Shown piece after piece: positions 4,887 to 24,502 of a stretch of 64,000 bases of DNA. The stretch lies in sequence record CP019900.1. One strand, 5' to 3'. Under the pieces are notes generated by a model. It saw nothing but the letters and a program-made list of their open reading frames with translations. It was not told where the DNA came from and searched no databases. This DNA comes from a plasmid. Each line of letters starts with the position of its first letter. Within the stretch, counting starts at the first letter, position 1. Position numbers and translations under genes: made by a program.

Positions 4887-5810
4887 TTATACCATCTGGC
4901 TTTCAATGCAGGCCAGCAGCTGCTGCGTCAGCCCGATCTCGACATTTTCATCCGTGACAAACTCTCCGGCATGCCAGGCATAGACATGAAATTCACACCG
5001 GTTATTGCGGAAGAAATAGGCCGGACCAGTGCCACCTGGCGAACTGAGTGACGTGGTGTATCCCGGGTCAGCAATGATGACCCATCCGGGAAACCTGGGA
5101 ACCGGAGCTGGTACTGCTCCGTTATGGCCGTCTTTCAGCATGACCTGCACCCGCCATGCTGATTCGCCGTAACTCGCCGGGCGGTAACTGTATAAAGTCA
5201 CGAACGAACCTTCCGTAACAAAGCCGGGAACCAGAGAGGACAGATTTTTAAGCAACCTGACGGAGTCGATATTTTTATAGAACTGATTTTCTGCATCAGG
5301 CTGAGTGGAGTAAAAAGCCTTTTCCCAGGCCATTCTGATAACAGCCCAATCCTGAGCGGCCAGCTCTGCAAACAGGGCCAGTTCAAGCGACAGCCCCCGC
5401 CTGAAGTAACTGATCCCGGCCATTCCTACTCTTGCCATATCCCGCAGATAAGGCGCATTATTAAAAAGGATACGCTTGAGATCATCATCGTTCTTCAGGT
5501 TCAGAAAACTGATGTAACCCTCGTTGATGCCAGGCAGCAGTCCTGAGTACCCGTTAGGGTCTGCACTGGCTCTCAGGTATTCAAAAAGCTCTGCATCCAG
5601 GGAAGCTACCAGACCACTCTTACGGATGAAATTTGAAATATCATCGCGGAAGGTGTCCACCAGGAGCTCCCGCAGCCAGGTTGTTTTGGGTTTGCCGGCA
5701 CTGGCCGCCTGGCTGGTAATAATATAATCAAGATAGCCCGGAATATTTCTGATGGTATACGAAACCGTACCATCATCGGCTTCATTGTCTGATCTGCCAT
5801 CATTAACCAT
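4887..5810 (-). CDS. Hypothetical 307-aa protein with an RHH-like N-terminus (YTIRNIPGYLDYIITSQAASAGKPKTTWLRELL)
   Basis: Long ORF with SD; no recognisable catalytic motifs. Confidence 0.5.
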   Translation of the reverse strand: MVNDGRSDNEADDGTVSYTIRNIPGYLDYIITSQAASAGKPKTTWLRELLVDTFRDDISNFIRKSGLVASLDAELFEYLRASADPNGYSGLLPGINEGYISFLNLKNDDDLKRILFNNAPYLRDMARVGMAGISYFRRGLSLELALFAELAAQDWAVIRMAWEKAFYSTQPDAENQFYKNIDSVRLLKNLSSLVPGFVTEGSFVTLYSYRPASYGESAWRVQVMLKDGHNGAVPAPVPRFPGWVIIADPGYTTSLSSPGGTGPAYFFRNNRCEFHVYAWHAGEFVTDENVEIGLTQQLLACIESQMV

Positions 5811-6061
5811 ATCATCTACCTTTTTTGTTTACATATCACTTTATGAAAAAAGGATATCCTAAAACAAAGGGTGACTAAATACTGCGAAGTATACTTTTCC
5901 AATAATAGTATTTGATTGATTACTTTTTAACCGTACTTGTTTTATAGATCCGATTTCTGGTGAAGTCGGATCTTTACTGGCTAAGTAGGTTGACCTGCTC
6001 CCCGTTGATTAATACACCGTGATGTTAGTAATGTCTTCATAAGCCACATGAGGACATCCCC

Positions 6062-6325
6062 ATGAAGAAGCGTTTTTCCGACGAACAGATCATATGTATT
6101 CTCCGCGAGGCCGAAGCCGGCGTTTCTGCCCGTGAGCTCTGCCGTAAGCACGCCATTTCCGACGCCACCTTTTACACATGGCGTAAGAAGTATGGCGGTA
6201 TGGAGGTGCCTGAGGTTAAGCGCCTGAAGTCGCTTGAGGAAGAGAACGCCAGACTCAAGAAGCTGCTTGCTGAAGCCATGCTGGATAAGGAGGCGCTTCA
6301 GGTGGCTCTTGGGCGAAAGTACTGA
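6062..6325 (+). CDS. IS407-group transposase OrfA
   Basis: HTH OrfA with LKKLLAE zipper ahead of the frameshift site. Confidence 0.85.
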
Positions 6326-6348
6326 CGACAGACCAGAAGCGGGAAGCC

Positions 6349-7182
6349 GTGGAAGTCATGTGCGAGGCTAAGGGTCTGTCGCAACGTCGTGCCTGCAGGC
6401 TGGCAGGTCTGTCCCTGTCAACCTGCCGATATTCGGCTCAGCGTCCGGCTGCTGACGCGCAGCTGTCTCTACGCATCACAGAGCTGGCACTTGAACGCCG
6501 CCGTTTTGGTTACCGGCGTATCTGGCAGCTTCTGCGACGTGAAGGTCTTTGCGTTAACCACAAGCGGGTTTACCGCATCTATCAACTTAATGGCCTGAGT
6601 GTAAAACGCAGACGACGTCGTAAAGGGCTGGCAACAGAACGTCTGCCGCTGCTCCGCCCGATGGCGCCCAATCTGACCTGGTCAATGGATTTCGTCATGG
6701 ACGCACTGGCCACAGGTCGCAGGATCAAGTGCCTGACCTGCGTGGATGATTTCACAAAGGAATGCCTGACGGTCACTGTTGCCTTCGGGATTTCAGGCGT
6801 GCAGGTCACGCGTATTCTGGACAGCATTGCGCTGTTTCGCGGCTATCCGGCTATGATAAGAACCGATCAGGGCCCGGAGTTTACCTGCCGCGCACTCGAT
6901 CAGTGGGCTTTTGAGCATGGTGTGGAGCTGCGACTTATCCAGCCCGGCAAGCCAACGCAGAACGGATTTATTGAGAGTTTTAACGGACGCTTTCGTGATG
7001 AATGCCTGAATGAGCACTGGTTCAGCGATATTGTTCACGCCAGGAAGATCATTAATGACTGGCGACTGGATTATAACGAGTGTCGACCACATTCATCACT
7101 GAATTACCTGACGCCGGCTGAATTTGCAGCGGGCTGGCGAAACGGGAAATATGAAGAAAAACCAACCGACATTACTAACTGA
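6349..7182 (+). CDS. IS407-group transposase OrfB (DDE); expressed as OrfAB by -1 frameshift from ~6300
   Basis: rve integrase core ([28 protein letters not shown]). Confidence 0.85.
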
Positions 7183-7359
7183 AGGTTGTATCTAACTCTG
7201 GGGGCAGGTCAAGGTAATGGTTTTCGCTACGGCCATGACTTTGGTTATGCAGTTAGAGGATCCTTCAGCTTCTCGTAAATCAGCCAACGATGCTGAGGAA
7301 ACCTAGGAGCGACAACTCATTCTGAGCGGGTAAGACAACGGAAAGTTCTGAAGTATGGA

Positions 7360-7391
7360 TTGACCTGCAGATTAGCAGGTCAATTTTATTT
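7360..7391 (+). terminator. Stem-loop TTGACCTGC-AGATTA-GCAGGTCAA followed by TTTTATTT; rho-independent terminator-like
   Basis: Perfect 9-bp stem plus T-run. Confidence 0.5.
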
Positions 7392-7470
7392 AACGTAAAC
7401 TGGATCGTGATGCCGGCTATACATCGCATATTTTCTGATCAGCTTGCTGAATTTTAAATCGGTAACGGTA

Positions 7471-8046
7471 TCAGGATGTTTTCCAGATGACAGCTACAGT
7501 GAAAATGATCGCCAGACCGGCGAGAAAGCAGAGCGAGAGCGGGATTTTGTCCTTCAGAGTCAGGTTCAGTTCTTCTTCAACCCATGCTTTCTCAAATTCA
7601 CAGTAAAATTTATAATGTGCGTACCAGTTACTTCCGAAGATCTGTTTGCTGATGACTGTGCCGTAAAACCGGGACATGATAGCGTCGATGGATTGCTGTG
7701 TATGCTGATAGTCAAAGTTTGCATTGCTTTTCACGTTGCGGTAGATGACTTCAAGTTCATTAAAAATTTTGGTCTGCTCAATACCCGCAGTTTCGTAACT
7801 CTGCTTTTCCGAGTCATAAAACTGAATGTACATGGTAGCCACACCAAATATAATTAATATTGCGGAGATGACGTTTGTTGCCAGCTCAGGAATGAAAAGA
7901 GCAAACACACCGACAGCAAGAGATATAAAGCTAATCCACCCGGATGCCTTACAAATCAGATCATAGGTGGCAAAGTTTTTCTTAGCGCCAAATCCAACGT
8001 TATAACCGTGTCGGGCGATTAATTTCAGCATCTCTGATTGCGTCAT
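7471..8046 (-). CDS. SLATT-like transmembrane effector (2 N-terminal TM helices, helical domain, C-terminal TM); putative CBASS effector
   Basis: 191 aa; TM helices at ~aa 36-78 and 165-187; placed 7 bp downstream of the nucleotidyltransferase gene; AT-rich. Confidence 0.5.
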   Translation of the reverse strand: MTQSEMLKLIARHGYNVGFGAKKNFATYDLICKASGWISFISLAVGVFALFIPELATNVISAILIIFGVATMYIQFYDSEKQSYETAGIEQTKIFNELEVIYRNVKSNANFDYQHTQQSIDAIMSRFYGTVISKQIFGSNWYAHYKFYCEFEKAWVEEELNLTLKDKIPLSLCFLAGLAIIFTVAVIWKTS

Positions 8047-8053
8047 AAAAACC

Positions 8054-9382
8054 TCAGCTTATGGGAACTTCAATCTGTGCCCGGGCAACCACAACCTCAT
8101 TTTTTATCACATAGCATTCTACCACGTGATCTCCGCGGAAGTCGGTGGTCTCTTTCTTCGTACAGTAGCCGCCGTCCGGAACGATTTGTCCCCGGATCAT
8201 ATTTCTTCTGCGTGCTTCGTCACCCACGTTCAGTACCTTCCACATAACGGTGTAGGGTTCCTCTGCCTCCATTTCTGTCAGGTCTGCTCGGAAAAGGAGA
8301 GATTTTCGGGCGGAGAGGCGGAATCTTCTGGTAAGCATCTCCCTCAGGCTTCTGGGAGGGAAACCATCCTGGGTTACGGTACAGTCAAGGTTGAGTGAGT
8401 ACCTGATATCCACCGGATATTTATCCTCTATAAACTCTTCGGTATCGGCCCAGGGAGCAGCATCAGCCGCATGCGATTCCAGACCGAGGCGGGCTTCCAT
8501 AATATCCACCTTACGTCTGGGGAAGGCTCGTCCGAACACTTTGCGCCAGCGGTCATTTTCACTGGCAGCCCCCTCACCGTCTAAGGCATCACAACATAAT
8601 TCATACGCGTGTTTCGCTGCCCGGCCAAACCAGGGGGATTTAACACGTACATATTGATTACTGCCTAACGCGAGATACCTTTCCCTTCTCTCCTCATTTG
8701 ACAGATATTCAAAAAAGTCTCTTGCGAGGGCTCCCAGGCTGCCGTTTCCGGTATTGTCATAATCTGATGTTGATGAAAGAAAGCGATACGCCAGTGTGTC
8801 TATCAGTAAGCCACCCATATTGACGCCATGCAGGTTCTTCCAGGCTCTGATCATTTTACACAGCTTGCGCAGATTGTTCGATTTATCTCGCGAAAATGCT
8901 GTCATAGCCGCCTTTTCGTGAAGAGGTTTTGTAATGCGCCATGCTCCCCCATTATAGCTTTCAGGGAATTTAAAGCTGCCATCATCCTGTCTGAATACTG
9001 GTTGAACCTCGACATGAAAGTTTTTAAAGACGACTTGAACGACCAGTCTGTCCTTTTTCACCGTCTGGTCAGGATATTCTTCCGCCAGAATGTTTCTGAC
9101 ATCTGTGAGCAATGCAGACTGACCATTATCCTTACGGTTATAATATTCATATTTATTGGAGGGCATAATATAAAGCATATCCAGATCTGATATGCCTTTT
9201 ATTGCGGTATGTCTACCTACTGACCCCACTTTCAAGCGGTTTGCTACCCGGGAACTCGTTCCTCTGAACGCAAGATTTAATGACTTGGTTATTTTTCGAT
9301 AGTGATAGCTGATCTTTTTTGCCTGTTTAAGGTCAAGATTCAAATTTTCAAGAAATTCGCTGAACAACTCCCTGCGGCTCAT
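8054..9382 (-). CDS. SMODS/CD-NTase-family nucleotidyltransferase (cGAS/DncV-like), putative CBASS cyclase
   Basis: GS-x9-SDLDM motif (VGSVGRHTAIKGISDLDMLY) typical of pol-beta superfamily CD-NTases; downstream acidic residue (GGLLIDTL); 442 aa. Confidence 0.6.
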   Translation of the reverse strand: MSRRELFSEFLENLNLDLKQAKKISYHYRKITKSLNLAFRGTSSRVANRLKVGSVGRHTAIKGISDLDMLYIMPSNKYEYYNRKDNGQSALLTDVRNILAEEYPDQTVKKDRLVVQVVFKNFHVEVQPVFRQDDGSFKFPESYNGGAWRITKPLHEKAAMTAFSRDKSNNLRKLCKMIRAWKNLHGVNMGGLLIDTLAYRFLSSTSDYDNTGNGSLGALARDFFEYLSNEERRERYLALGSNQYVRVKSPWFGRAAKHAYELCCDALDGEGAASENDRWRKVFGRAFPRRKVDIMEARLGLESHAADAAPWADTEEFIEDKYPVDIRYSLNLDCTVTQDGFPPRSLREMLTRRFRLSARKSLLFRADLTEMEAEEPYTVMWKVLNVGDEARRRNMIRGQIVPDGGYCTKKETTDFRGDHVVECYVIKNEVVVARAQIEVPIS

Positions 9383-9566
9383 GGTGTTTCCTTTGGTATG
9401 TGAAACATTAACTTACATTATCATTACACCTTATAAAAACCAAGGTCTTCGGAGGTGAGCGTTATGTATGGCTTCATGACTTAAACTTTTACAGGATGGC
9501 CTATAAAAATAAGCCATGAAGTCATTTCTGGCAGATGAAATGCTCTGCATAAGCACGGTCTGATTA

Positions 9567-10940
9567 CTACTTCTTCATGCACTTAATTACCGTAGTGCGC
9601 AGGAGAAACCAGGACGGATGATGGGTAACATCCTCATGATGACGATGAGCCCCCAGCGCAGCCTGCAGAAGACTGACTGCTCCAGCGGCCATATTCAGCA
9701 ATGAAGGTGATCCCATATAACCCAGCACTGCCGGTACGGCGAGCAGTGCAGTGTCCTGTATACTCCTGCGCTTCCATATGCTGAGCTTCTGGTGAAGTTC
9801 ATCCAGCCCTTCATCCGCAATACGTTCCTGGAAACGCTGCTGCAGGAGGCGGATCTCATCCGGACCGGACGCGCGCTCCATTTCAACTGCACAGTCACGC
9901 AAAGAACGCCTGAAGGCTGTCACGCTTGGCTCGTAATCGGTACGGATGCGAAAAATATCGTGTAAAGACAGGTCCTGCAGAAAAGGGAGATCAATTTCCA
10001 GCATCCGGCGTGAAAGTCTGCCCGGTTCATCCAGTTTCTGGAGTATTTTGCTCTGGAACGCACAACGAGTGACAAAAGAGGCACCAGCCCTGGATGACTG
10101 GCTGATATCAGTAAGGAGACCGCGATAATGAAAGTACATGCTACGATTTTTGGCTCCGTTTACCCATCGCTCATACCCTTTACGGCTTTCATGTTTACCG
10201 CGGGTGATCCTTGCTATAAACGTCCCGTCTTCGTTTATCCGGACAGGCTGCATTTCCTGATAAATATACGCATTGGTGAAAGGACTAAGGCAATCCCGTA
10301 ATTCCAGCACGATTTCGTCCGGCAATGTTTTTTCTGACACGAACCTGAAATGCCCTTCTTCACCCACTCGCCTGATGCCCCGCACGGAAAGGCTTCGTTC
10401 ATAGAGCTGAGCCACAGCCGGAGGCATCACGCTGTGAAGGAAATGCCGGTCAGGGTTATCATGCAGGAGCTGCATCCTGCGCTGCTGTTCATGCCTTGCT
10501 GATTCACAAGGCGTGAAAGCAATGAAACCGGCCTGAATCAGAAGAAAATTGTCCTTAACAAAACGAATGAATTGCGCAACACCAGTTCTGATATCCCCAA
10601 GCCTGTCGGTTTCTCTGTTATGTACCAGATGATCCATCGCCTGGGATGACTCAACAATTTCAAGCCGTAATGCCGCTTCTTCCAGCGCATCGGTCAGGAT
10701 TATTCGCTCAGCTGACAATAATCCGGGGCGATAAAGGGCTACCTGGTCGTGACGGGCAATCCACAGACTGAGAGGAGAGTGCTCGGGATTATGCCACTCG
10801 ATCCGGAGTACGCTGACTGCGTGGAGATAACGGCTGAGCGCGCCCCTCAGCGCTTCAGCGTCGAGGACAGAATAGTCTGTTGCCAGAAGACCGTTATCCC
10901 ACAGAATACTGTCAGTGAGGGCGGGGAGGTTATTGTACAT
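9567..10940 (-). CDS. Hypothetical 457-aa protein (no recognisable motif), second gene of a GC-rich 2-gene operon
   Basis: Long ORF with 10-bp gap from the upstream gene; no Walker, HNH or PD-ExK motifs seen. Confidence 0.5.
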   Translation of the reverse strand: MYNNLPALTDSILWDNGLLATDYSVLDAEALRGALSRYLHAVSVLRIEWHNPEHSPLSLWIARHDQVALYRPGLLSAERIILTDALEEAALRLEIVESSQAMDHLVHNRETDRLGDIRTGVAQFIRFVKDNFLLIQAGFIAFTPCESARHEQQRRMQLLHDNPDRHFLHSVMPPAVAQLYERSLSVRGIRRVGEEGHFRFVSEKTLPDEIVLELRDCLSPFTNAYIYQEMQPVRINEDGTFIARITRGKHESRKGYERWVNGAKNRSMYFHYRGLLTDISQSSRAGASFVTRCAFQSKILQKLDEPGRLSRRMLEIDLPFLQDLSLHDIFRIRTDYEPSVTAFRRSLRDCAVEMERASGPDEIRLLQQRFQERIADEGLDELHQKLSIWKRRSIQDTALLAVPAVLGYMGSPSLLNMAAGAVSLLQAALGAHRHHEDVTHHPSWFLLRTTVIKCMKK

Positions 10941-10950
10941 GGGAGTCTCC

Positions 10951-12033
10951 TCACAGATCTCCGTACAGGCAGCGCAGTCCGGTCAGGGCCTCCGCCAGCG
11001 TGCCTTCAGCACACCGCGTGGTGAGCTCGCGGACCAGCACCTCAAAGGCCTCCGCTGGTAAAAAAATTCGCAGGCCGTCTATCCCGAAGAATCCCTCCGG
11101 CATCACACTACCCGGCGGGGAGAACATCACGCGCTCCCCCTGATGGCCGTGCGCCAGGGCTTCAGGATAGCAGGCATACAGGCTGAACAGGCCCAGCAGT
11201 TCAGAGAATGCCGCCCAGCCGCAGGGGAACACAAACTCCTTCCCGGTCAGGACCATATGTAGTTTCGGTGTCCTGTACAGCGCGCCCGGACGCTGCCCTG
11301 GCGGGAGCCCGTCGATCTGAATATCGAGGCGCAGCGTGCCGGCTTCAATAGTTTCCGTCACGGCCGGGATGAGCGGGCGCAGCTCCTGCACCAGGGCCTC
11401 GACCTGGGTCTCGGTCCGCTCCAGTCCGCACAGCAGCAGCGGAAAAACTTCCCTCAGTCTGGCCAGGGTGAAACTCCTGGCCAGCACGGAATCCGGAAAA
11501 TCTGTCAGTTCCAGACAGCCACTTTCCAGCGGGCGCAGCAGCTGTTCGGCGGTGGCATGGTCGATGACCGGGCGTAGTCCGGTCAGAAACCGGTCATAGT
11601 CTGCCAGCAGATCCCCGTCGCGCAGCCGGTAGGTTCTCCGCAAATAATGTTCGTCCCGCACCCTGTCCTGTTCCACCTGCCAGGTCAGCAGTTCCCGGAC
11701 GATCTGCAGCAGCGTGCTGAGTGCCGGCCGTGTGACCAGGCGGTGACGTCCGCGCAGGAAACCCTGTCGGGCGCTGACCAGCATGAACCGCAGTTCGTCC
11801 CGGGAGACCGGCTCAAAGGACATGCCGGCGACTATCTTGCGGTACAGCTGCCGGATCGTGGTTTCAGGGTCGGCGATCAGCTGGAAATAACTGTCGCCGG
11901 TAGCGGCCGTTTTCAGACCGTCATCAAGAAAACGTTCAGCGAGGGCATTGACAGAGGTATTTTCGTGGCCGGCACGAATTTTCAGGGCCTCGATCAGTTT
12001 TTTGTGAAAGCGCAGGGTCAGCTGACTCAGCAT
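10951..12033 (-). CDS. Hypothetical 360-aa protein with an N-terminal RHH-like domain (LTLRFHKKLIEALKIRAGHENTSVNALAERFLDDGL)
   Basis: First gene of the operon; RHH beta-alpha-alpha pattern at the N-terminus. Confidence 0.5.
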   Translation of the reverse strand: MLSQLTLRFHKKLIEALKIRAGHENTSVNALAERFLDDGLKTAATGDSYFQLIADPETTIRQLYRKIVAGMSFEPVSRDELRFMLVSARQGFLRGRHRLVTRPALSTLLQIVRELLTWQVEQDRVRDEHYLRRTYRLRDGDLLADYDRFLTGLRPVIDHATAEQLLRPLESGCLELTDFPDSVLARSFTLARLREVFPLLLCGLERTETQVEALVQELRPLIPAVTETIEAGTLRLDIQIDGLPPGQRPGALYRTPKLHMVLTGKEFVFPCGWAAFSELLGLFSLYACYPEALAHGHQGERVMFSPPGSVMPEGFFGIDGLRIFLPAEAFEVLVRELTTRCAEGTLAEALTGLRCLYGDL

Positions 12034-12595
12034 GTGGGCTCCTGTCAGGATGGATGTATTGTATGAATACAGTTACAGTGACTGAAATGAACAGAGATGA
12101 AGTTAATCATGTAATCATTAAGAGGTCAATTTAATGACATGATGTCATTTTTAATGATGTGATTCAGTATTGTTCTTCTTTTTTTCACTGAGATCCGATT
12201 TCTGTGAGTTCCGGATCTCTGCGAACCCCACCGGCGCGCAGCGGCCCGGCAACACAAGATGTAGCGGTTTTTCCAGCTGACAGTGACCCTATATGTTGTG
12301 TCCCTCCCCTGCCCCGTGACCGGCCGCTCACCACCGGAAAAGGGCTGTGTGGTTATTCCCTGACCGTGGTACACTTCCGGAAAGTTGTGATACGCACGAA
12401 AATCGGATCTGCCGGAAACGGCCATCCGGTAATTTACCTGTGTGGCTGTATGCCTGCTTATTATCATCCTTAAAATGATGACGGCATGGGAAAATCATCA
12501 AGGTGACAGATACAGGATTGTGTACGGCTGATTGTGCTGAGTATAATAATTACGTCGAGTGACTATTGAACCGGATACTATTTTTGAGGCGGGGT

Positions 12596-12925
12596 ATGGG
12601 TAAACCAACATTTAGATCATTTATCGATGTGGTCAGGGAGCTTGAGGATGTATATGGCCATAAAGAGCTATGGCTGTATTCAAGAAAGGCATATGCGACG
12701 CCAAAAGAAATGATTCAAGCCAAATATAACTGGAAATCGCCAAAAATCCTGAAACGTAACGGAAGAATGGTTGCAGAACGAATGGATAACTCGGACTCAT
12801 GGCAACTGGTTGGTGACTACAAAGATCCACAGTCACAAGATTGTGCTCCGCCCTGGCAATCCTGCCTGATAGATAAACCATTTATGCTCCTTTACAGCAT
12901 CGTCACTAGAAAGCCAGAGGAATAA
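12596..12925 (+). CDS. Hypothetical 109-aa protein
   Basis: ORF starting MGKPTFRSF with AT-rich upstream region. Confidence 0.4.
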   Translation: MGKPTFRSFIDVVRELEDVYGHKELWLYSRKAYATPKEMIQAKYNWKSPKILKRNGRMVAERMDNSDSWQLVGDYKDPQSQDCAPPWQSCLIDKPFMLLYSIVTRKPEE

Positions 12926-12957
12926 TGGATAGTGGGATTTCTCAATAAGGATCAAAC

Positions 12958-13629
12958 ATGGCTGACTGGTTTATTGCGACTGAGGGCGTGAAGGTGGTGA
13001 AGGACAGTGCCAGCCTGTGGCCGCAGATCGTTACGGCTATTTCCTCTGCCGGCGCAGCCCTGGTGGGTGTTGCTCTCACACACCGTTTTACCCGCAGGCG
13101 TGAAGAAGCTACTGCTGCACGTAAACGTTACGATGAATTGTACTTTATATCTACCGAGCTAGTTTTTCTGCTGGAGCGTTTTGCACAACGCTGTGTTTAT
13201 TCTGCTAATGAATCAGGGGAATATGACCAAGATGGACGTATTAGGATTGAGTATTCTTTACCTGAAATCAATTTCGAGTCCATTACTGGGGACTGGCGTT
13301 CTCTGCCACCAGGATTGATGTACAGACTTGCTGAATTGCCAGTCATCTGCAGGGAAGCCGCGAGTTCTATAAGTGCGGCGTTCAATGAAGATACTCCCTT
13401 CGATGGATCGTATGGAATTTTCGAACTTAACAGGCAGTCTGCAAGACTCGGATTAAAAGCAATACGTTTATCCCGTTGGCTACGTCAGCTATGCGATATG
13501 CCTGGGGACAGGTTGTCTGACGACCGTTGGTCGGCATGGAGTGTTTTGTATCGGAAGCGCTGGGAGCATATTAGGAATAATAACAATGTTTACCGCCGAT
13601 ATAAACGGTTGCCTGATGTTACTGAGTAG
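12958..13629 (+). CDS. Hypothetical 223-aa protein with one N-terminal TM helix
   Basis: SD AAGGA upstream; TM at ~aa 20-42. Confidence 0.45.
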   Translation: MADWFIATEGVKVVKDSASLWPQIVTAISSAGAALVGVALTHRFTRRREEATAARKRYDELYFISTELVFLLERFAQRCVYSANESGEYDQDGRIRIEYSLPEINFESITGDWRSLPPGLMYRLAELPVICREAASSISAAFNEDTPFDGSYGIFELNRQSARLGLKAIRLSRWLRQLCDMPGDRLSDDRWSAWSVLYRKRWEHIRNNNNVYRRYKRLPDVTE

Positions 13630-13648
13630 ATGGCTCAGGAGTTAGACT

Positions 13649-14437
13649 ATGAATAATAATTTCCCGGCGGGTATCAGGGATAACACACGGAACACCTCGA
13701 TGAATCTGCCAGTAGCCATCGATTACCCTGCCGCTCTCGCCCTGCGTCAGATGGCGCTCGTGCAGGATGAACTCCCGAAATACCTGCTGGCGCCGGAAGT
13801 CAGCGCCCTGCTCCATTACGTGCCGGATCTTCACCGCAAGATGCTGCTGGCGACGCTGTGGAACACCGGCGCGCGCATTAATGAAGCGCTCGCGCTGACC
13901 CGGGGGGATTTTTCGCTGGCGCCGCCGTATCCGTTCGTGCAGCTGGCCACGCTCAAGCAGCGCACCGAGAAAGCGGCCAGGACGGCAGGTCGTGCCCCCG
14001 CAGGCAGTCAGGTCCATCGTCTGGTTCCCCTTTCCGATCACCACTACGTCAGCCAGCTGCAGATGATGGTGGCCACCCTGAAAATTCCGCTGGAAAGACG
14101 AAACAAGCGCACCGGCAGAATGGAGAAGGCGCGTATCTGGGAGATCACAGACCGTACCGTGCGCACCTGGCTTAGCGAAGCGGTGGAGGCCGCAGCGGCC
14201 GACGGGGTGACGTTCTCAGTACCGGTTACCCCCCATACGTTCCGTCACTCCTACGCGATGCATATGCTGTATGCCGGCATACCACTGAAGGTTTTGCAGA
14301 GCCTGATGGGCCACAAATCGATTAGCTCGACGGAAGTCTATACGAAGGTGTTCGCACTTGATGTTGCTGCGCGGCATCGAGTTCAGTTTCAGATGCCCGA
14401 AGCGGATGCGGTAGCCATGCTGAAAGGGAATATTTAA
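13649..14437 (+). CDS. Tyrosine recombinase / site-specific integrase (plasmid multimer resolution or integrase type)
   Basis: C-terminal catalytic motifs HTFRHSYAMHML ... LMGHKSISSTEVYT (R-H-R-Y family). Confidence 0.8.
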   Translation: MNNNFPAGIRDNTRNTSMNLPVAIDYPAALALRQMALVQDELPKYLLAPEVSALLHYVPDLHRKMLLATLWNTGARINEALALTRGDFSLAPPYPFVQLATLKQRTEKAARTAGRAPAGSQVHRLVPLSDHHYVSQLQMMVATLKIPLERRNKRTGRMEKARIWEITDRTVRTWLSEAVEAAAADGVTFSVPVTPHTFRHSYAMHMLYAGIPLKVLQSLMGHKSISSTEVYTKVFALDVAARHRVQFQMPEADAVAMLKGNI

Positions 14438-14494
14438 GTACTTAGGAGAATGATGCTGGCGAACATCCTGCTCGCCGGGGAGGTCTGTCAGACG

Positions 14495-14752
14495 TTATCT
14501 GGACCAGCTGACGGGAATATCTGCTCTGTATTCCTCATACTGCTCATAGATCGCATGCTGAAGCATCGTAATACGTTCTGACAACCTGTTGGCGTCCGAC
14601 ATATGCCGCCATTCCCCCTCAATAGTGGTTTTCTGTCCATCCGGGAGATTGAGCGTGATCAATACCTTTGTATCACGAATAATCACCCCGTCAGTGAAAG
14701 AATTAAGACCACTCCTTACGGTATTATCTATCTGTATAGTTTCAAGTTTCAT
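14495..14752 (-). CDS. Hypothetical 85-aa protein
   Basis: Strong SD AGGAGGTAACAAG before MKLETIQ. Confidence 0.5.
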   Translation of the reverse strand: MKLETIQIDNTVRSGLNSFTDGVIIRDTKVLITLNLPDGQKTTIEGEWRHMSDANRLSERITMLQHAIYEQYEEYRADIPVSWSR

Positions 14753-15317
14753 CTTGTTACCTCCTGTTGACCGGATCCCAAGCATAGATATCTGAATTCA
14801 AATTGCCTAGTGAAATGTCTGGATATGCCGCATTTTTCCCCTTATACAGCGAAGCTGGCCAAAGGCCAGCCCGCATGGATTTATCGCTTTTGCCAGTAGA
14901 TCAGCATAGCAAGGAACAGGATTGTTGCCCCCTGAGAAGCGGTCAGGAAAGTTTCCAGCAATGACATTATCGTAAAACTCCGCATTATTAATTTCAGGTG
15001 TGTGATTCAGGGGCCTTAGTCCCCCTTTTACAGGACGTAGTGTTCTGTCACGACGGGAGCCAGGGTTAATAAAAACGATTCGAATATGTCTGCAGGGACG
15101 ATAGAAATCTTCGTGCGGGTTGTCTCGCTGTAGCGGGCTCTGGAGAGCGACTCGGGGGAGGAGTAGTATCTTCCGGCCACGGATATGATCGAGCCAGCAG
15201 TGCTCGCCGCAGTCGAGCGACAGGGCGAAGCCCCGAGTGAGCGAGGAAGCACCAGGGAACAAAACTTATAAATTCTGCTTACGCTCAATGCCTGAAAAAT
15301 CACCTCCCCCTCGGGGT

Positions 15318-15400
15318 TATCCACTTATCCACGCGCATATTTTTATAAAGTACTTTTTTATTCTTTTTCTTTATTTTACATCTTTTAGGGAGCCTAAAAG
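15318..15400. promoter_or_regulatory. oriV elements: tandem DnaA boxes (TTATCCACTTATCCACGCG) followed by a ~60-bp AT-rich tract
   Basis: TTATCCAC consensus repeated; AT-rich 15342-15400. Confidence 0.6.
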
Positions 15401-15548
15401 CCGCGTACAGTGCGGCCTGAGAGGGGGCCTGTATGGGCAACTGGTAAACATAATATGGGAAATTAATCACGTATCAGTGGGTTTTGTGTCAACAAGCTAT
15501 GGGATACGCATCAACAAGCTATGGGAAAGAGGTCAAGTTCAGTTCTCA

Positions 15549-15566
15549 ATTATCCACTTGTGGATA
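15549..15566. promoter_or_regulatory. Inverted pair of DnaA boxes TTATCCACT / TGTGGATAA, plus a partial inverted iteron (AGGTCAAGTTCAG) at 15531-15543, in the repA promoter region
   Basis: Read directly from the sequence; position is just upstream of repA. Confidence 0.5.
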
Positions 15567-15666
15567 AAGTGCAGATTTTTCCGGTGGATAAGTATCGCGA
15601 TAGCTTGCAATTTCTGTTTTCACTGTCATTATGGGTGGGTAAAAATTTACCCATAGGCATTGAAAT

Positions 15667-16387
15667 GGATACTCAAGCACTCTTGCCAGCTACTAAAACG
15701 TTTAAAAAACGCGCCAGTATAAAGCAATCTAACGAATTGACCGAAGCTGCATATTACCTGCCTCTTCAGGCAAAACGTGTGCTGTGGTTATGCCTCATGC
15801 AGGCCTATTTTAATGACAGCCAGGAAGATGACTCTGACGTATTGCCGCTCTTCAAAATCAGCGTTTCCGATTACGTCAAATACTTCAATGTCGCTACGTC
15901 TGTCGCCAGTCGTGATGTGAAGGCTGGGGTAAATGCTCTGGGCGAATCAACGGTTACCTTTTATCCAAAAGAAGGTGAGTTTGAAGAAGTTAAACGTCCG
16001 TGGCTGGCTGAAGCAGGAATGAAGCGAGGCCGGGGTTCCTGGCAGATTGAATTTAACTACAAGGTCATGCCATTCCTGGTAGGCTTAACCTCCCAGTTCA
16101 CTACCTATTCTCTCTATGACTGTGGCCAGCTTAATAGTGTTCGTGTCATCCGGCTTTATGAAAGCCTGTGTCAGTTCCGGAGCACTGGTGTCTGGATCAC
16201 CACACATGACTGGTTATGTGAAAGGTTTATGCTCCCTGCTTCGCAGAAAAACAATATTGCTGAAATGAAGCGTACCTTCCTGGAACCTGCTCTGAAGAAA
16301 ATTAATGAGAAGACGCCATTAAAGGTAACATATACCACTGAAGAAGATGGTCGCTTGCTGTTTAATTTTCTTGATAAAAAACAATAG
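15667..16387 (+). CDS. repA: Rep_3-family iteron-binding replication initiator RepA (RepFIB-like)
   Basis: Similarity to the pSC101/RepFIB initiator family (LTEAAYYLPLQAKRVLWLCLMQ); iterons downstream; start taken at MDTQALLP. Confidence 0.8.
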
Positions 16388-16439
16388 CCTGTAATTTTTA
16401 TTTCCTCCCCCTTAGTTTGTTGCTGACATATGGGGGGAT

Positions 16440-17035
16440 ACTAAACTTGCTGTATTTCCCATAGTGCTTGCCTAACTTGACCTGTTTCCCGCAATCGCGG
16501 CTGTCTGCGTAGTTGACCTGTTTCCCACAGTCCGGGCCGTCTGCGGAGTTGACCTGTTTCCCACAGTCCCGGTCGTCTGCAAAGTTGACCTGTTTCCCAC
16601 AGTCCCGGTCGTCTGCAAAGTTGACCTGTTTCCCACAGTCCGGGCCGTCTGCAAAGTTGACCTGTTTCCCACAGTCCCGGTCGTCTGCAAAGTTGACCTG
16701 TTTCCCACAGTCCGGGCCGTACGCGGAGTTGACCTGTTTCCCACAGTCCCGATCGTCCGAGAAGTTGACCTGTTTCCCATAGTCCGGGCCGTCCGCGAAG
16801 TTGACCTGTTCCCCACACTCCCGGCCGCCCGCGAAGTTGACCTGTTTCCCACAGTCCGGGCCGTCTGCAAAGTTGACCTGTTTCCCACAGTCCCGGCTGC
16901 CCGCGAAGTTGACCTGTTCCCCACACTCCCGGCCGCCCGTGAAGTTGACCTGTTTCCCATAGTCCGGGCCGTCCGCGAAGTTGACCTGTTTCCCATAGTC
17001 CGGAGCGTCCATTAAAGTTGACCTGTTTCCCACAG
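16440..17035. repeat. Iteron array: ~15 tandem 39-bp repeats with core AGTTGACCTGTTTCCCACAGTCC
   Basis: Periodicity of 39 bp, visible as 13-aa repeats in all-frame ORF artifacts. Confidence 0.9.
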
Positions 17036-17426
17036 AGGATGGAAAACTCTTCTTGTGCTGAGCGTAAGAGCTATCTGCCGGAACGGTTCCTCTTCGCTTC
17101 CTCGCCAGTTCGCTCGCTACGCTCGGTTACATGGCTGCGGCGAGCGCTGATACATAAGGCTCAGCATTGCACTGGTCGTAACTAAAATCAGAATCCTTCT
17201 GAATGACCCTCCTGTCTTGCAAGTTGGATACCTTTCTCAAAGCCCTTTTGTATGAGTTGCTGTTGATGGTCAAAAGTGCGTCTGCGTGTTGCTGCAGTGT
17301 GATTTAGTAGCACGCCCGTCGAGCTTCATCCCTCTTCTGTTGAGAGCGAAATCAAAACAATATGATTTTTTGCTTGCAACATGACTCTTTTTGTTCAAAA
17401 TGACAAAAAACGTCATGAGGTGATAA

Positions 17427-18632
17427 ATGGACAATATTGAGCAGTTACGGAAAGTCGCTACACGTGCAGGTAAGCTTCTGACATCTTTGAGCGAAAGTAT
17501 CCGACAGCAAAAAGAGGAATTGAAGCTTACCGAGTTCTATCAGGAATACAGCAAAGCCGCTCTGTATAAGCTGCCTAAGCTCAGTAAAGGCAGTGTTGAG
17601 TATGCTGTGTCCGAAATGGAAGCCGGTGGCTACATTTTTAAAAAGAAACCTTCTGGTAATACGATGAAATACGCGATGACGATTCAGAATGTCATCGATC
17701 TGTATAACCATCGTAAAGTACCGAAGTACAGGGATCGCTTCGATAAAGCCTTTACGATTTTTGTATGTAATCTTAAAGGTGGTGGTTCCAAGACAGTTTC
17801 TACCGCTTCATTATCACATGCTTTTCGAGCTCATCCTCAGCTTCTGTTCGAAGACCTGCGTATTCTGGCCATCGATTTCGATCCGCAGGCATCTCTGACA
17901 ATGTTCCTGAGCCATGAGAATTCAGTGGGCTTGGTTGAAAATACGGCTGCTCAGGCCATGCTCCAGAACGTGTCTCGTGAAGAATTACTTTCCGATTTTA
18001 TAGTACCGTCTATTATCCCTGGTGTTGATGTAATCCCCGCTTCCATTGACGATGCATTCCTTGCTGAAGGCTGGAAGGGATTGTGTGAAGAACATCTGCC
18101 AGGGAAAAATATTCATGCGGTGCTTAAAGAGAACATTATCGACAAGCTCCAGCATGACTACGACTTTATTTTCCTTGATAGTGGTCCTCACCTTGATGCG
18201 TTCCTGAAAAACTGCATTGGGGCGGCAGACCTGATGTTGACCCCTCTTCCACCGGCGACGGTTGATTTTCATTCTTCCCTGAAGTTTGTGGCCAGCCTCC
18301 CTGCCCTCATAGATTCCATCGAAATGGATGGGCACACCTGCAATCTCATCGGTAATGTCGGCTTCATGTCCAAGATCCTGAACAAGTCTGATCACAAAAT
18401 TTGCCATAGTCAGGCCAAAGAGGTTTTCGGTGCCGATATGCTAGACATGGTTCTGCCGAGACTGGATGGTTTCGAACGCTGTGGGGAGACTTTTGACACA
18501 GTTATTTCAGCAAATCCAGCAACCTATGATGGAAGTACTGAGGCACTAAAAAGCGCAAAATCAGCAGCGGAAGACTTTGCGAAGGCAGTCTTTGATCGCA
18601 TCGAGTTCATTCGTACTAACGGAGGTATGTGA
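17427..18632 (+). CDS. parA: Type Ia partition ATPase ParA/SopA
   Basis: Deviant Walker A CNLKGGGSKT; 401 aa with the N-terminal extension typical of SopA. Confidence 0.85.
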   Translation: MDNIEQLRKVATRAGKLLTSLSESIRQQKEELKLTEFYQEYSKAALYKLPKLSKGSVEYAVSEMEAGGYIFKKKPSGNTMKYAMTIQNVIDLYNHRKVPKYRDRFDKAFTIFVCNLKGGGSKTVSTASLSHAFRAHPQLLFEDLRILAIDFDPQASLTMFLSHENSVGLVENTAAQAMLQNVSREELLSDFIVPSIIPGVDVIPASIDDAFLAEGWKGLCEEHLPGKNIHAVLKENIIDKLQHDYDFIFLDSGPHLDAFLKNCIGAADLMLTPLPPATVDFHSSLKFVASLPALIDSIEMDGHTCNLIGNVGFMSKILNKSDHKICHSQAKEVFGADMLDMVLPRLDGFERCGETFDTVISANPATYDGSTEALKSAKSAAEDFAKAVFDRIEFIRTNGGM

Positions 18633-19606
18633 TGTCGAATGAGAAAAGAAAAACCATCGGCAGACAGTTAAATACCCAGGCGTCAATGGCGGAAATGACG
18701 GACACCGGTAGAAGCCAGGTATTTACCTTAAAAACCGGCAGGAAGGTAACGTTCAGGTTTGTTCGGGTGCCTGCATCTGAAGTTGAAAGTAAGACCTTCG
18801 TAAACCAGGAAAACAACGGAAGAGATCAACTTGCACTGACCAGGGAGTCCCTGAAATCCATTATCCAGACGATTAAGTTTCAGCAGTTCTTTCCCTGTAT
18901 TGGTATTAAGCAAAGTGAAAGGATTGAGATACTGGATGGTTCAAGACGGCGAGCCTCAGCAATTTTTGTCCGTACAGGCCTTGATGTAATGGTTACCGAA
19001 GAACATTTATCAGCTGATGAAGCTCGCCAACTGGCTAAAGATATCCAGACAGCTAAAGAACATAATCTTCGGGAGATTGGCCTGAGATTGATCGCTCTTA
19101 AAGAGTCCGGATTTAATCAAAAGGAAATTGCTGAACTGGAGGGGTTATCTCAGGCTAAAGTTACCAGGGCGCTGCAGGCGGCGGCCGTACCGCAAGACTT
19201 GATTTCTCTGTTCCCGGTTCAGTCGGAGCTATCGTTTAGTGACTATAAACTTCTTTTAGAAGTTAATGAAAAACTCAGTGAAAAGGGATTAACGCCTGAA
19301 GAACTCATTCAGTCTGTATCAGCTCAGCTCGATGCAATTTTGAGTGATGGCGAGCGACCAGAAGACGAACAGAAAGCCAGTATTCTGAAGCTGATTTCTC
19401 AGGCATCTCAGGCATTGATAGATCCATCTCCCAAGGAAAAGTCAGTGGTTTCCCCACTCTGGTCTTTTGAAGAAAAGGACAAGTTCGCGCGTAAGCGTGT
19501 GAAAGGGCGCACGCTGACTTATGAGTTTAGCCGTATGTCAAAAGTGATTCAGGATGAACTGGACAAGGCTATCAACGAGGTCCTTGACAGAAATTTGAGT
19601 CAATAA
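18629..19606 (+). CDS. parB: Partition protein ParB/SopB
   Basis: ParB-like domain; overlaps the parA stop by 4 bp. Confidence 0.8.
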   Translation: MMSNEKRKTIGRQLNTQASMAEMTDTGRSQVFTLKTGRKVTFRFVRVPASEVESKTFVNQENNGRDQLALTRESLKSIIQTIKFQQFFPCIGIKQSERIEILDGSRRRASAIFVRTGLDVMVTEEHLSADEARQLAKDIQTAKEHNLREIGLRLIALKESGFNQKEIAELEGLSQAKVTRALQAAAVPQDLISLFPVQSELSFSDYKLLLEVNEKLSEKGLTPEELIQSVSAQLDAILSDGERPEDEQKASILKLISQASQALIDPSPKEKSVVSPLWSFEEKDKFARKRVKGRTLTYEFSRMSKVIQDELDKAINEVLDRNLSQ

Positions 19607-19610
19607 TTTC

Positions 19611-19685
19611 GCCATGGCGATTTCACATCTAACTTATTGTAATTAGGCAGTTTAGGCTGAGAATTTCAAGGTGAAATCGCCATAG
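19611..19685. promoter_or_regulatory. Inverted repeat GCCATGGCGATTTCAC ... GTGAAATCGCCAT; candidate partition (centromere-like) site
   Basis: 14-bp arms 19613-19626 / 19671-19684 immediately downstream of parB. Confidence 0.3.
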
Positions 19686-19687
19686 TT

Positions 19688-20958
19688 TCACGCCAGTTTC
19701 GCTGCAGGAATATCTGACCATCGTGTCGTATAAGCAGGAGAAAGCATCTCCCGTTTCATCTGCCATTCCGGGGCCATACCCCGCCCCGCAAACCATACTT
19801 TACCCAACCCTGAGTTGTTGATCCCGTCCAGAACCCTCATCAGCTCAGCACTGTGAGGGCGTGGCGGGCGTTCGTCGAACAGCTGCAGCTGCGAAACGCC
19901 GGAGCCGGTGAAGTCATTCAGCATAACTCCGGCTTTGGCATACCGGTGCCCATCCCTCCAGATACGCTCCAGAGCCGTTGTGGCGGCTGCAATGATGTCC
20001 CTGGTGTCCTGAGTGGGTGTAAGAAGTTTTTCCGTAGCCACGTTGCCGTAGTAAGGCTCTTTAATGGCGAACGGAGACGTTTTGATGAAAACGGAAATAT
20101 GCCGGCAATACTGGTGCTCGTTACGCAGTTTTTCAGAGGCCCGCTCTGCGTGCTGACAGATAGCCTGACGGAGTGACTCGTACTCCGTGATCTTAACGCC
20201 AAAACTGCGGCTGCAGACAATTTGCTGTTTCGTCGGAGGGGATTCCTCAAGCGAAAGGCAGCTTTCCCCGTTCAGTTCCCGTACCGTTCGCTCAAGGACG
20301 ACAGAAAAATTTTTGCGGATGAAGGCCGGGTTCGTCAGAGCCAGATCGAGCGCGGTTTTTATGCCCAGCACATTTAGCTTGCGTGCAATACGGTTACCCA
20401 CCCCCAGATTTCTTCAACCGGCTGCAGTGAAAGCAGTTTCCGCGTCCTTTGCGGGTTTCCCATGGTCAGAGCGAGTACGCCACGAAACTGTTTCCACTCT
20501 TTTGAGGCCCACTGGGCTGATTTTGCGAGGGTTTTCGTTGGTCCGGCGCCCACGCCAATGGTCAGGCGGGTACAGTCATACACGTGCTGACGCAGCTGCC
20601 GGCCGAAGTCCTCAAGCCCCATACAGTGCTCCACGCCGGTCAGGTCGAGGAACATCTCATCAATGGAATACTGTTCCACCCTGGGGGCCAGTTCCTCCAG
20701 GCAGTTCATCACGCGCGCCGACATCGAGGCGTAAAGTTCATAATTACTTGAAAACGCATATATTTTTTCCGGGTACCTTTCGTTTTTTATCTGAAACCAC
20801 GGAGTTCCCATTTTGATCCAGGGCTTCGCCTCGGCACTGCGAGCGATTACGTTCCCGTCGTTGTTGCTCAGGACGACTATCGGCTTTCCTTTCAAATCCG
20901 GGCGGAAAACACGTTCACAGCTGGCATAGAAGCTGTTCACATCGGCCAGGGCAAACAT
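19688..20958 (-). pseudogene. umuC: umuC (error-prone polymerase V catalytic subunit) split by a -1 frameshift in a G5 run at ~20390-20400
   Basis: ORFs 20374-20958 and 19688-20401 together match UmuC; ...PVEEIWG|VGNRIARKL is restored by adding one G. Confidence 0.8.
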
Positions 20959-21389
20959 CAGTACATCTCCCTCGGGCGGTGGATGATATGCGTGACGACG
21001 CCAAAGATATCCAGCTCGTCGGGATCAGGATAAATCGGCGACCAGGAGGCATTCATGGGCTGCAGCGTCAGTCGCGGCGTCAGCAGAAGCCGTTTCACCG
21101 TAAACTCCCCCTGTACGCTGGCGACAACGATATCGCCGTGCCGCGGCTTTTCAGCACTGTCCACAACCAGCAGATCGCCATTGTACAGACTGCCGTCGGC
21201 CATGCTGTCTCCGCTGGCACGCAGGTAGTACGTCGCGCTCGGATGCCGTATGCAGTAATCATGGAGATCCAGATCGGACTCGACATAGTCAGCAGCAGGG
21301 CTGGGAAAACCGCAGCTGGCCAGATCGGCAAACAATGGATGGGCCTGTGGCGGGAGTTCTTTCCCGGTGCTGAAAAGTTGTAGCTTCAT
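20958..21389 (-). CDS. umuD: UmuD (LexA-like S24 self-cleaving accessory subunit)
   Basis: Cys-Gly cleavage site (ASCGFPSP), SGDSM and K catalytic dyad; SD CCTCCT complement. Confidence 0.9.
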
Positions 21390-21413
21390 CTTTCCTCCTG
21401 ATACTTCAAGTTA

Positions 21414-21429
21414 CTGGTTATATATACAG
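21414..21429 (-). promoter_or_regulatory. LexA SOS box CTGTATATATAACCAG upstream of umuD
   Basis: CTGT-N8-ACAG consensus, 24 bp upstream of the umuD start. Confidence 0.85.
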
Positions 21430-21430
21430 T

Positions 21431-23370: not shown

Positions 23371-23380
23371 CTTCAGTACG

Positions 23381-23520
23381 AACATTTTGAGTAAATAAAG
23401 GTGCTCAAAATGCTGTTATTAATCATTTTGATATTTTTATATTGCTCATATTGAGAAATATTGCTTTGATTTTTTCATTTTGCTCTTATAATTGGTATCA
23501 AATTGAGTGTAATTAACGGA
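23381..23520. repeat. AT-rich region with repeated CATTTTG / CAAAATG motifs; candidate parC-like centromere/promoter of the ParMR system
   Basis: At least 5 copies of TCATTTTG-like motifs in direct and inverted orientation upstream of parM. Confidence 0.4.
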
Positions 23521-23525
23521 GCATA

Positions 23526-24500: not shown

Positions 24501-24502
24501 AC

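Follow-up and report, generated by a model that had tools for sequence, protein, structure and literature searches.

What does a tightly spaced pair of genes encode that sits beside an anti-phage system on an enterobacterial plasmid, and is the system it forms a known one? The question is raised by positions 9567-12033 of a 64,000-nucleotide stretch of plasmid DNA from sequence record CP019900.1 (hereafter the window), in which two open reading frames (ORFs) for proteins of 360 and 457 amino acids (aa) lie on the minus strand, 10 bp apart. A first-pass annotation, made from the letters alone, had placed both ORFs at exactly these coordinates and had proposed that they match no named system. 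The comparison with other plasmids identifies the locus as a pif-type operon, carried by an enterobacterial plasmid of the IncFIB type, in which pifA has been exchanged for an unrelated gene, referred to here as gene 2. A named counterpart does exist, as gene 1 encodes PifC and the locus corresponds to the pif operon of IncF-type plasmids with pifA replaced. While gene 1 was already known, the pair is new as a pif variant with an exchanged effector gene. As an overall explanation, we favor a pif operon in which gene 2 serves as an interchangeable single-protein conflict effector under the control of PifC, with a probability of about one half.

Gene 1 encodes PifC

The name pif stands for phage inhibition by F, and PifC is the autorepressor of the pif (phage T7 exclusion) operon. 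Gene 1 (10951-12033, minus strand) codes for a protein that shares 69% identity with PifC of F (WP_000952217; F record NC_002483) over the full length (360/362 aa; BLASTP). Relatives found by megablast and by tblastn against plasmids carry the annotation 'transcriptional repressor PifC', and the protein collection contains 255 PifC-family clusters, all of them from Enterobacterales and many named PifC. The gene order is shared with F as well and comprises the ResD recombinase (92% identical), divergent upstream genes, pifC and then a cargo gene, with a RepFIB/FIA replicon beside them. That gene 1 is the ortholog of F pifC is hardly open to doubt, and the earlier description of its larger part as a ~300-aa domain of no recognisable family has to be given up, as the whole protein is a PifC ortholog.

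The ribbon-helix-helix (RHH) start that had also been proposed for gene 1 is plausible, if weakly supported. The putative RHH segment spans residues 1-45 (11899-12033, minus strand), which are nearly identical to those of F PifC. It matches DUF6364 with E=4.5e-5, under the gathering score, and Arc-like repressor PHROGs with E=0.004 and 0.0099. In the AlphaFold2 (AF2) model, short helices at residues 11-24 and 28-35 follow an extended N-terminal segment; the predicted local distance difference test score (pLDDT) is low there, as is expected for a dimeric fold modelled as a monomer. The rest of the protein is a ~300-aa globular domain, with residues 55-360 confidently folded (pLDDT 80-94; 79 overall). 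Apart from regulating the pif operon, PifC acts as a fertility-inhibition factor against IncP and IncW plasmids via the coupling protein (PMC5696584). With the F protein assayed in that work, the full-length PifC of the window shares 69% identity; the activity is known for PifC of F and R64 only, however, and says nothing of gene 2.

The slot downstream of pifC carries unrelated genes on different plasmids

In F, pifC is directly followed by pifA, which encodes a 741-aa P-loop NTPase of the KAP family. In the window, this slot is taken by gene 2 (9567-10940, minus strand), whose product belongs to an uncharacterised orphan family of ~450-aa proteins, and tblastn detected no PifA encoded anywhere in the 64 kb. 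The possibility that gene 2 is a diverged or truncated pifA was rejected, as the protein has no similarity to F PifA (best E=2.7). F in turn has no remnant of gene 2, which was looked for as a possible 'pifB', and no same-strand ORF after pifA. The two operons are alike in the orthologous regulator, the backbone position by ResD and a RepFIB/FIA replicon, an inverted repeat upstream of pifC and an effector gene placed directly after the pifC stop, but they differ in the effector itself, which in the window is not PifA and has neither a KAP NTPase domain nor Walker motifs nor sequence similarity. T7 exclusion triggered by gp1.2 and gp10 is a phenotype known for F PifA only (PMC8594841).

At least four unrelated cargos occupy the slot after pifC on different plasmids. 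Besides gene 2, these are PifA on F and at two further loci (L044 and L059, 6089-8329), the latter with a pifC that is an 87%-identical, window-type allele; a 292-aa Cys-rich protein on the IncI plasmid pEC012 (L043, 6082-6960), which matches the PADLOC candidate family PDC-S64 with E=1.5e-16; and a 247-aa protein, its C-tail hydrophobic, on Serratia-type plasmids (L056-58; 6235-6978 in L056), preceded by a 5' remnant of pifA and followed by TIR and patatin genes. On a Serratia nevei plasmid, there is no cargo after pifC. The other side of pifC is variable too, with ccdAB in F and genes for a 119-aa and a 223-aa, PDC-S67-like protein in the window. Taken together, the slot after pifC looks like a repressor-controlled cassette site. 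The 247-aa cargo was also considered as a remote relative of gene 2 and was discarded (hhalign probability 0.2).

The connection between pifC and gene 2 is compact. Read from the sequence, the pifC stop and the 10-bp junction (10941-10953, minus strand) appear as ...GAT CTG TGA GGAGACTCCC ATG, so that the TGA overlaps the GAGGAG Shine-Dalgarno sequence of gene 2, which lies 6 nt before the ATG. As the pifC stop codon overlaps the ribosome-binding site of gene 2, co-transcription of the two genes is most likely. The junction '...YGDL* TGAGGAGAC-N4-ATG' is kept in four further loci (L002, L006, L013 and L046) and persists where only a remnant of pifC is left (L007, L008). The initial view of a coupled operon in a defence-rich plasmid region is supported.

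Gene 2 occurs with and without pif genes

Gene 2 was found in 73 of 72,556 plasmid records, 50 of the 73 being conjugative, and PifC-like genes in 1494, mostly with partners other than gene 2. Gene 2 is full length in 61 of its 73 records, and the junction of the pifC 3' end with gene 2 is intact in 24 of these 61. The co-conservation that the first-pass annotation had expected of a true gene pair holds only in part.

Among Enterobacterales, gene 2 is almost exclusively plasmid-borne. The arrangement of the window, with pifC followed after 10-13 bp by gene 2, recurs in Enterobacter pY546 (L002), K. quasipneumoniae (L006), Pantoea cypripedii (L013-15) and Yersinia (L046/47). In Rahnella (L005) and K. 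aerogenes (L048/49; 11-bp gap after pifA), pifA lies between pifC and gene 2. In two independent K. aerogenes assemblies, pifA is split into two ORFs (412 + 328 or 308 aa; L048 2762-4989, L049 511-2738) and gene 2 is intact, which suggests that pifA is decaying in this lineage. Two loci have no annotated pifC and retain, directly upstream of gene 2, the last 16 pifC codons (L008) or a pifC remnant with a premature stop (L007). Gene 2 stands alone in K. pneumoniae L050, within a cluster of toxin-antitoxin (TA), Abi_2 and TIR genes and with a junction of the pifA-linked type, and in a chromosomal islet by mnmE in Cronobacter (L052); a Moellerella plasmid carries a standalone member of a more distant clade. 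The complete 81-kb plasmid p24150-KPC has an intact gene 2 and encodes neither PifC nor PifA anywhere. On Pantoea agglomerans plasmids (L009), a 40%-identical relative lies between a SMEK_N-domain protein (6772-7686; PADLOC Aga_REase-PNTD-like, E=3e-14) and a 267-aa protein with a hydrophobic C-terminus (9394-10197), which may represent a different three-gene arrangement.

The divergence of PifC and that of gene 2 are uncoupled. Relative to the window, PifC and gene 2 are 69% and 97% identical in L002, 69% and 63% in L048, 50% and 65% in L046, 34% and 70% in L006, and 33% and 76% in L013. Between the window and L002, the DNA from the adjoining CBASS (cyclic oligonucleotide-based anti-phage signalling system) through gene 2 is 93-100% identical, and identity drops inside the 3' end of pifC. 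CBASS is found next to gene 2 only in the lineage of the window, L001 and L002 and is absent in L005-L008, L013, L046, L048, L050 and L052. Close homologs of gene 2 thus adjoin CBASS (window, L002), Ppl (L007), the TA/Abi_2/TIR cluster (L050) or the SMEK_N protein (L009).

More distant members of the family were found by a cross-phylum genome scan with an alignment of 10 distant-clade sequences, in Acidobacteriota, Cyanobacteria, Verrucomicrobiota, Patescibacteria, Bacillota and Spirochaetota. An all-against-all comparison of three ORFs on each side revealed no recurring neighbour of the distant family, so that the family behaves as a standalone gene; outside the pif operon, it lies in variable regions that often hold defence genes. 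Several of the 67 flanking ORFs encode such functions, namely type I/II restriction-modification (RM), AIPR, DndB, Vsr, RT_UG31, a retron PRTase, MzaE and NsnA, a suggestive list. Of 50,697 deposited phage genomes, none carries a member of the family. Members are present on seven IMG/VR contigs, at least two of which look plasmid-like and have pifA adjacent. On the contigs L067/L068, which are plasmid-like rather than phage-like, a distant member (6001-7359, plus strand; 22% identical to gene 2) is convergent with a PifA homolog (7541-9781, minus strand; 42% identical to F PifA), which is preceded by a partial pifC (9887-10216, minus strand). Either the family has become associated with pif genes a second time, independently, or the flank distal to pifA is a hotspot for insertions. 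Across all these settings, gene 2 is an autonomous, conserved and horizontally mobile gene.

The gene 2 product and its family

The close family of gene 2 comprises 63 clusters of 39-96% identity, all from Enterobacterales and essentially all 453-458 aa long. These full-length clusters, together with dN/dS ratios of 0.10-0.16 against five homologs, show that gene 2 is a real and constrained gene. An exhaustive profile search returned 452 clusters at E<=1e-3 and 163 at E<=1e-10, nearly all aligned end to end and of ~450 aa; a second, word-indexed homolog search with the broad alignment returned mostly the close family again. Y38, D84 and W259 are the only invariant residues of the broad alignment, and P319, R333, F343, R344 and L347 are nearly invariant. 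A C-terminal motif, HPSWFL in the window (9603-9620, minus strand), follows the family consensus NPxYFLWK and appears as (H/N)P-x-(W/Y)-F-L in the broad alignment. H441, P442, S443 and F445 of this motif are invariant in the close family, and P444, L448 and W449 are near-invariant in the distant clade.

The AF2 model of gene 2 (pLDDT 76, predicted template modelling score 0.72) shows an N-terminal alpha/beta region (residues 1-250), long helices at 253-284, 337-355 and 360-410, and a helix-break-helix at ~397-433. The latter segment (residues 397-433; 9642-9752, minus strand) is rich in Gly, Ala and Ser, contains the hydrophobicity maximum of the protein, and is covered by AF2 helices 360-410 and 414-439, with low pLDDT over the hydrophobic part. 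In nearly all of the family members sampled, the Kyte-Doolittle profile (19 residues) peaks at about 395-430 and reaches 1.4-2.1, and P403, P412, G420 and A421 are invariant in the close family. The model and the hydrophobicity profile suggest that residues 397-433 form a putative membrane-inserting hairpin or anchor.

Profile and structure searches, which had been proposed along with the first-pass annotation, returned no family or fold match for gene 2 in the libraries searched. Specifically, gene 2 has no above-threshold match in Pfam, NCBIfam, PADLOC v2.0.0 or PHROGs, no match to a toxin family in the first three of these, and no sequence relative in the PDB, even with a 45-sequence profile. 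No P-loop family match was obtained for gene 2 or for 10 distant relatives; unlike KAP/STAND-type NTPase defence proteins, gene 2 thus lacks a Walker A/B P-loop domain match. Weak matches to DUF6236 (PF19749, itself uncharacterised) over residues ~310-450 were obtained for 11 of 90 family members, far more than for any other Pfam family. All are under the gathering threshold of 26.2 bits (best E=0.0013; two scored at 13.8-15.1 bits), and the window protein itself has no match, so that the relation to DUF6236 is remote at most. The literature search returned nothing relevant on the protein accession, on DUF6236, or on PifA and PifC together. The family appears undescribed in the libraries and literature searched (PADLOC of 2023), and the early assessment of the second gene as uncharacterised and a legitimate candidate for a defence effector stands.

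Candidate operators upstream of pifC

Two sequence elements upstream of pifC could, singly or both, be operators for PifC. The palindrome ATGACAT-N-ATGTCAT (12134-12148) lies just upstream of a TTGACC -35-like hexamer and has a single exact match in the window. It is also present upstream of the two most divergent pifC genes examined, those of Rahnella (L005) and L006, and is absent from F and L002. The second element, an inverted repeat of the form ...GAGATCCG-N-CGGATCTC... (12184-12225), is found upstream of every pifC examined, that of F included. Of this AGATCCG...CGGATCT repeat, the core CGGATCT does not vary among 5 loci, the PifC proteins of which share just 34-69% identity. The repeat is a candidate pifO operator or a site associated with recombination or an origin. 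At the other end of the operon, no intrinsic terminator was predicted in the 184 bp that separate gene 2 from the CBASS cyclase gene.

Gene 2 as a putative conflict effector and the alternatives

So far, the findings point to an operon in which PifC would repress transcription from an operator upstream of its own gene, as in F, and in which pifC and gene 2 would be transcribed together, with PifC keeping the level of gene 2 low; we consider this regulatory part likely. Gene 2 itself would be a self-contained conflict effector, most likely anti-phage and of the abortive-infection (Abi) type. This reading draws on the position of gene 2 in a slot where PifA or a PDC-S64-like gene can stand in its place, on its patchy distribution among phyla and on the genes next to it. 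The Abi protein PifA excludes T7 via sensing of gp1.2 and gp10 and membrane depolarisation (PMC8594841, PMC13001434). For a defence function as such, we put the chances slightly below even. The N-terminal region would then sense a trigger and the C-terminal hairpin would act at the inner membrane, a mechanism that is tentative and the more doubtful part of the proposal. It has parallels in effectors with a C-terminal membrane segment, such as the two-transmembrane SLATT protein of the adjacent CBASS, with which gene 2 shares a cytoplasmic N-terminal part, a short hydrophobic C-terminal segment and the location in defence-rich regions of mobile elements. It has no sequence or fold similarity to the SLATT or PADLOC effectors, however, and shows no consistent linkage to a cyclase or another signalling enzyme.

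Several observations weigh against gene 2 being such an effector. No homology-based or experimental link connects it to phage defence, and PADLOC v2.0.0 gave no match; the fold search, which likewise returned none, covered solved and viral structures. Housekeeping genes are also among the flanking ORFs of some distant members, and the defence genes there amount to a suggestive signal. In the window protein, the hydrophobic segment is borderline for a transmembrane helix (19-residue maximum 1.43) and could instead be an oligomerisation interface, and confidence in the AF2 model is moderate. The minus strand yielded no sigma-70 consensus promoter, and the promoter and operator functions are predictions. 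Finally, PifC also inhibits the fertility of IncP and IncW plasmids (PMC5696584), so that its cargo could serve conflict between plasmids rather than phage defence.

This last point leads to the idea that gene 2 extends the role of PifC as a plasmid-versus-plasmid factor, by fertility inhibition, entry exclusion or a membrane activity directed at the type IV secretion system. The targeting of the coupling protein by PifC, the almost complete restriction of the enterobacterial gene to plasmids, many of them conjugative (50 of the 73 records), and a plausibly membrane-proximal C-terminus of gene 2 would all agree with this. Yet distant members are chromosomal (cyanobacteria, acidobacteria, clostridia, spirochaetes) and lie near RM, Abi and retron-type genes rather than conjugation genes, and the Cronobacter copy resides in a chromosomal islet beside mnmE; we regard this idea as unlikely. 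Of equally low probability is a role outside any conflict, such as membrane attachment, replication from the adjacent origin region or stress adaptation, with gene 2 merely sharing the pifC promoter. The locus does lie within the replication, resolution and partition backbone, beside ResD and RepFIB, gene 2 has no detectable catalytic or defence motif, and some distant homologs have housekeeping neighbours. A core maintenance function does not fit, however, with the patchy spread across phyla, which resembles horizontal transfer and comes without conserved neighbours, with the rarity of gene 2 relative to pifC (73 against 1494 of the plasmid records), or with its exchange for PifA and the PDC-S64-like gene in one slot.

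Somewhat less probable again is that gene 2 is an accessory of PifA, a 'third pif gene' encoding a membrane partner of the KAP NTPase, the window copy being a relic after loss of pifA. F PifA excludes T7 although F has no gene 2, and gene 2 is under purifying selection in the absence of pifA, which is missing from the whole window; in K. aerogenes pifA is split and gene 2 intact, and no KAP NTPase recurs beside distant members. These points stand against the order pifC-pifA-gene 2 in Rahnella and K. aerogenes, the pifA-3'/gene 2 junction retained in the standalone copy of L050, and the 22%-identical family member convergent with the pair of pifC remnant and pifA in L067/68; furthermore, PifA is reported to act at the membrane without having transmembrane helices (PMC13001434). 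The TA-like reading of the first-pass annotation, in which PifC as an RHH antitoxin would neutralise a gene 2 toxin in a type II TA or addiction module, is not supported by the comparison and is the least probable of all. Like the RHH-type modules (ccdAB, ParD/ParE), the pair has an RHH-type first gene, a tightly spaced second gene (10 bp) and a plasmid location near other TA pairs. But antitoxins of this kind have ~70-100 aa, whereas PifC is a 360-aa operon repressor with a confidently predicted extra domain of 300 aa and occurs in most of its 1494 plasmid records without gene 2. Gene 2 in turn stays intact (dN/dS about 0.1) where no more than 16 codons of pifC are left (L008) or pifC is prematurely stopped (L007), and its presence on the complete plasmid p24150-KPC, which has no PifC, argues against a TA pair. 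The uncoupled identities of PifC and gene 2 (69/97, 33/76 and 34/70), the recombination breakpoint inside pifC relative to L002, and the junction kept in only 24 of the 61 full-length records point in the same direction, as co-occurrence is not obligate.

Neighbouring genes and mosaic structure of the window

The CBASS pair that had been noted beside the operon is present and type I-like, with a SMODS and AGS_C cyclase (8054-9382) and a SLATT_6 effector with two transmembrane segments (7471-8046). The contrast in GC content had been overstated at ~60% versus ~38% for the neighbours: gene 1 has 61.7% and gene 2 51.9%, with 43-48% in the flanks and a mean of 53.3% over the 64 kb. The reported accessory block bounded by an insertion sequence (IS) and an integrase has to be revised as well. 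The 'integrase' (13649-14437) is a backbone recombinase of the ResD type, 92% identical to the F recombinase located after ccdAB, which we take to be ResD, and ~90% conserved in every related locus compared. The IS is an IS3-family element (5991-7211; ORFs 6062-6325 and 6349-7182) between a 307-aa gene and the CBASS SLATT gene, and it was inserted recently, as judged against the Raoultella ornithinolytica plasmid p117885-NR, which is otherwise 99-100% identical. The RepFIB-type initiator gene (15521-16387) is located just past the recombinase gene and is directly followed by a 36-bp tandem repeat (16477-17035; 15.5 copies, 87% matches), which makes spurious ORFs of repetitive sequence appear in three frames and probably represents an iteron or incompatibility array.

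The window is a mosaic, in which positions 7212-12499 are 98.8% identical to a Raoultella IncFIB/FII plasmid and positions 12207-25000 are ~98% identical to K. pneumoniae IncFIB-type plasmids carrying a group II intron (ltrA), umuC and parAB. Upstream of pifC, both tracts of identity overlap. A breakpoint precisely at the conserved inverted repeat was considered and rejected, as the Raoultella identity continues to 12499 and that to the Klebsiella backbone begins at 12207.

Between pifC and the recombinase gene, where F has ccdAB, the window carries a 119-aa gene (12566-12925, plus strand) and a 223-aa gene (12958-13629, plus strand). The 223-aa protein has matches to PDC-S67, a candidate defence family of PADLOC (E=1.3e-27), and to phrog_33426 (E=6e-35), and both E. 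coli pMRY15-131_1 and Pantoea cypripedii have homologs (53% and 48%, respectively) at the equivalent position; a literature search on PDC-S67 found nothing relevant. On the other side of the CBASS pair, a 307-aa ORF (4887-5810, minus strand) has no match in Pfam, NCBIfam, PADLOC or PHROGs; its RHH-like product was compared with PifC as a possible paralog, which was rejected. At the matching position downstream of the CBASS pair, Enterobacter pY546 encodes a RelB/DinJ-fused ~317-aa protein and an Abi family protein, and K. pneumoniae L050 also carries a matching pair of a ~317-aa protein and Abi_2. The stretch downstream of the CBASS pair may hold a further uncharacterised module.

Implications for pif operons and their plasmids

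Pif was among the first abortive-infection systems described and is usually treated as a fixed pair of pifC and pifA. The loci compared here present PifC instead as a conserved backbone element next to a variable cargo slot, on IncF/IncFIB plasmids of clinical importance from Klebsiella, Enterobacter, Raoultella, Cronobacter and E. coli. One occupant of this slot, gene 2, belongs to an orphan family of 452 clusters that reaches across many phyla and has no sequence or fold relative detected. It is possible, if rather less probable than its serving as a conflict effector in the pif operon, that gene 2 founds a widespread family of single-protein abortive-infection effectors, with a fold unlike solved structures and a membrane-inserting hairpin at the C-terminus, and that the slot after pifC is a repressor-controlled defence cassette site at which unrelated effectors are swapped.

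Even if gene 2 is not a defence gene, the annotation of the locus is corrected from 'hypothetical protein' to a PifC ortholog with a cargo of the pif slot. If it is a defence effector, a new single-gene system would be added, and looking after pifC would be a simple route to further effectors. In that case, the finding would also bear on how resistance and virulence plasmids shape the phage susceptibility of their hosts, which would be relevant to phage therapy against Klebsiella.

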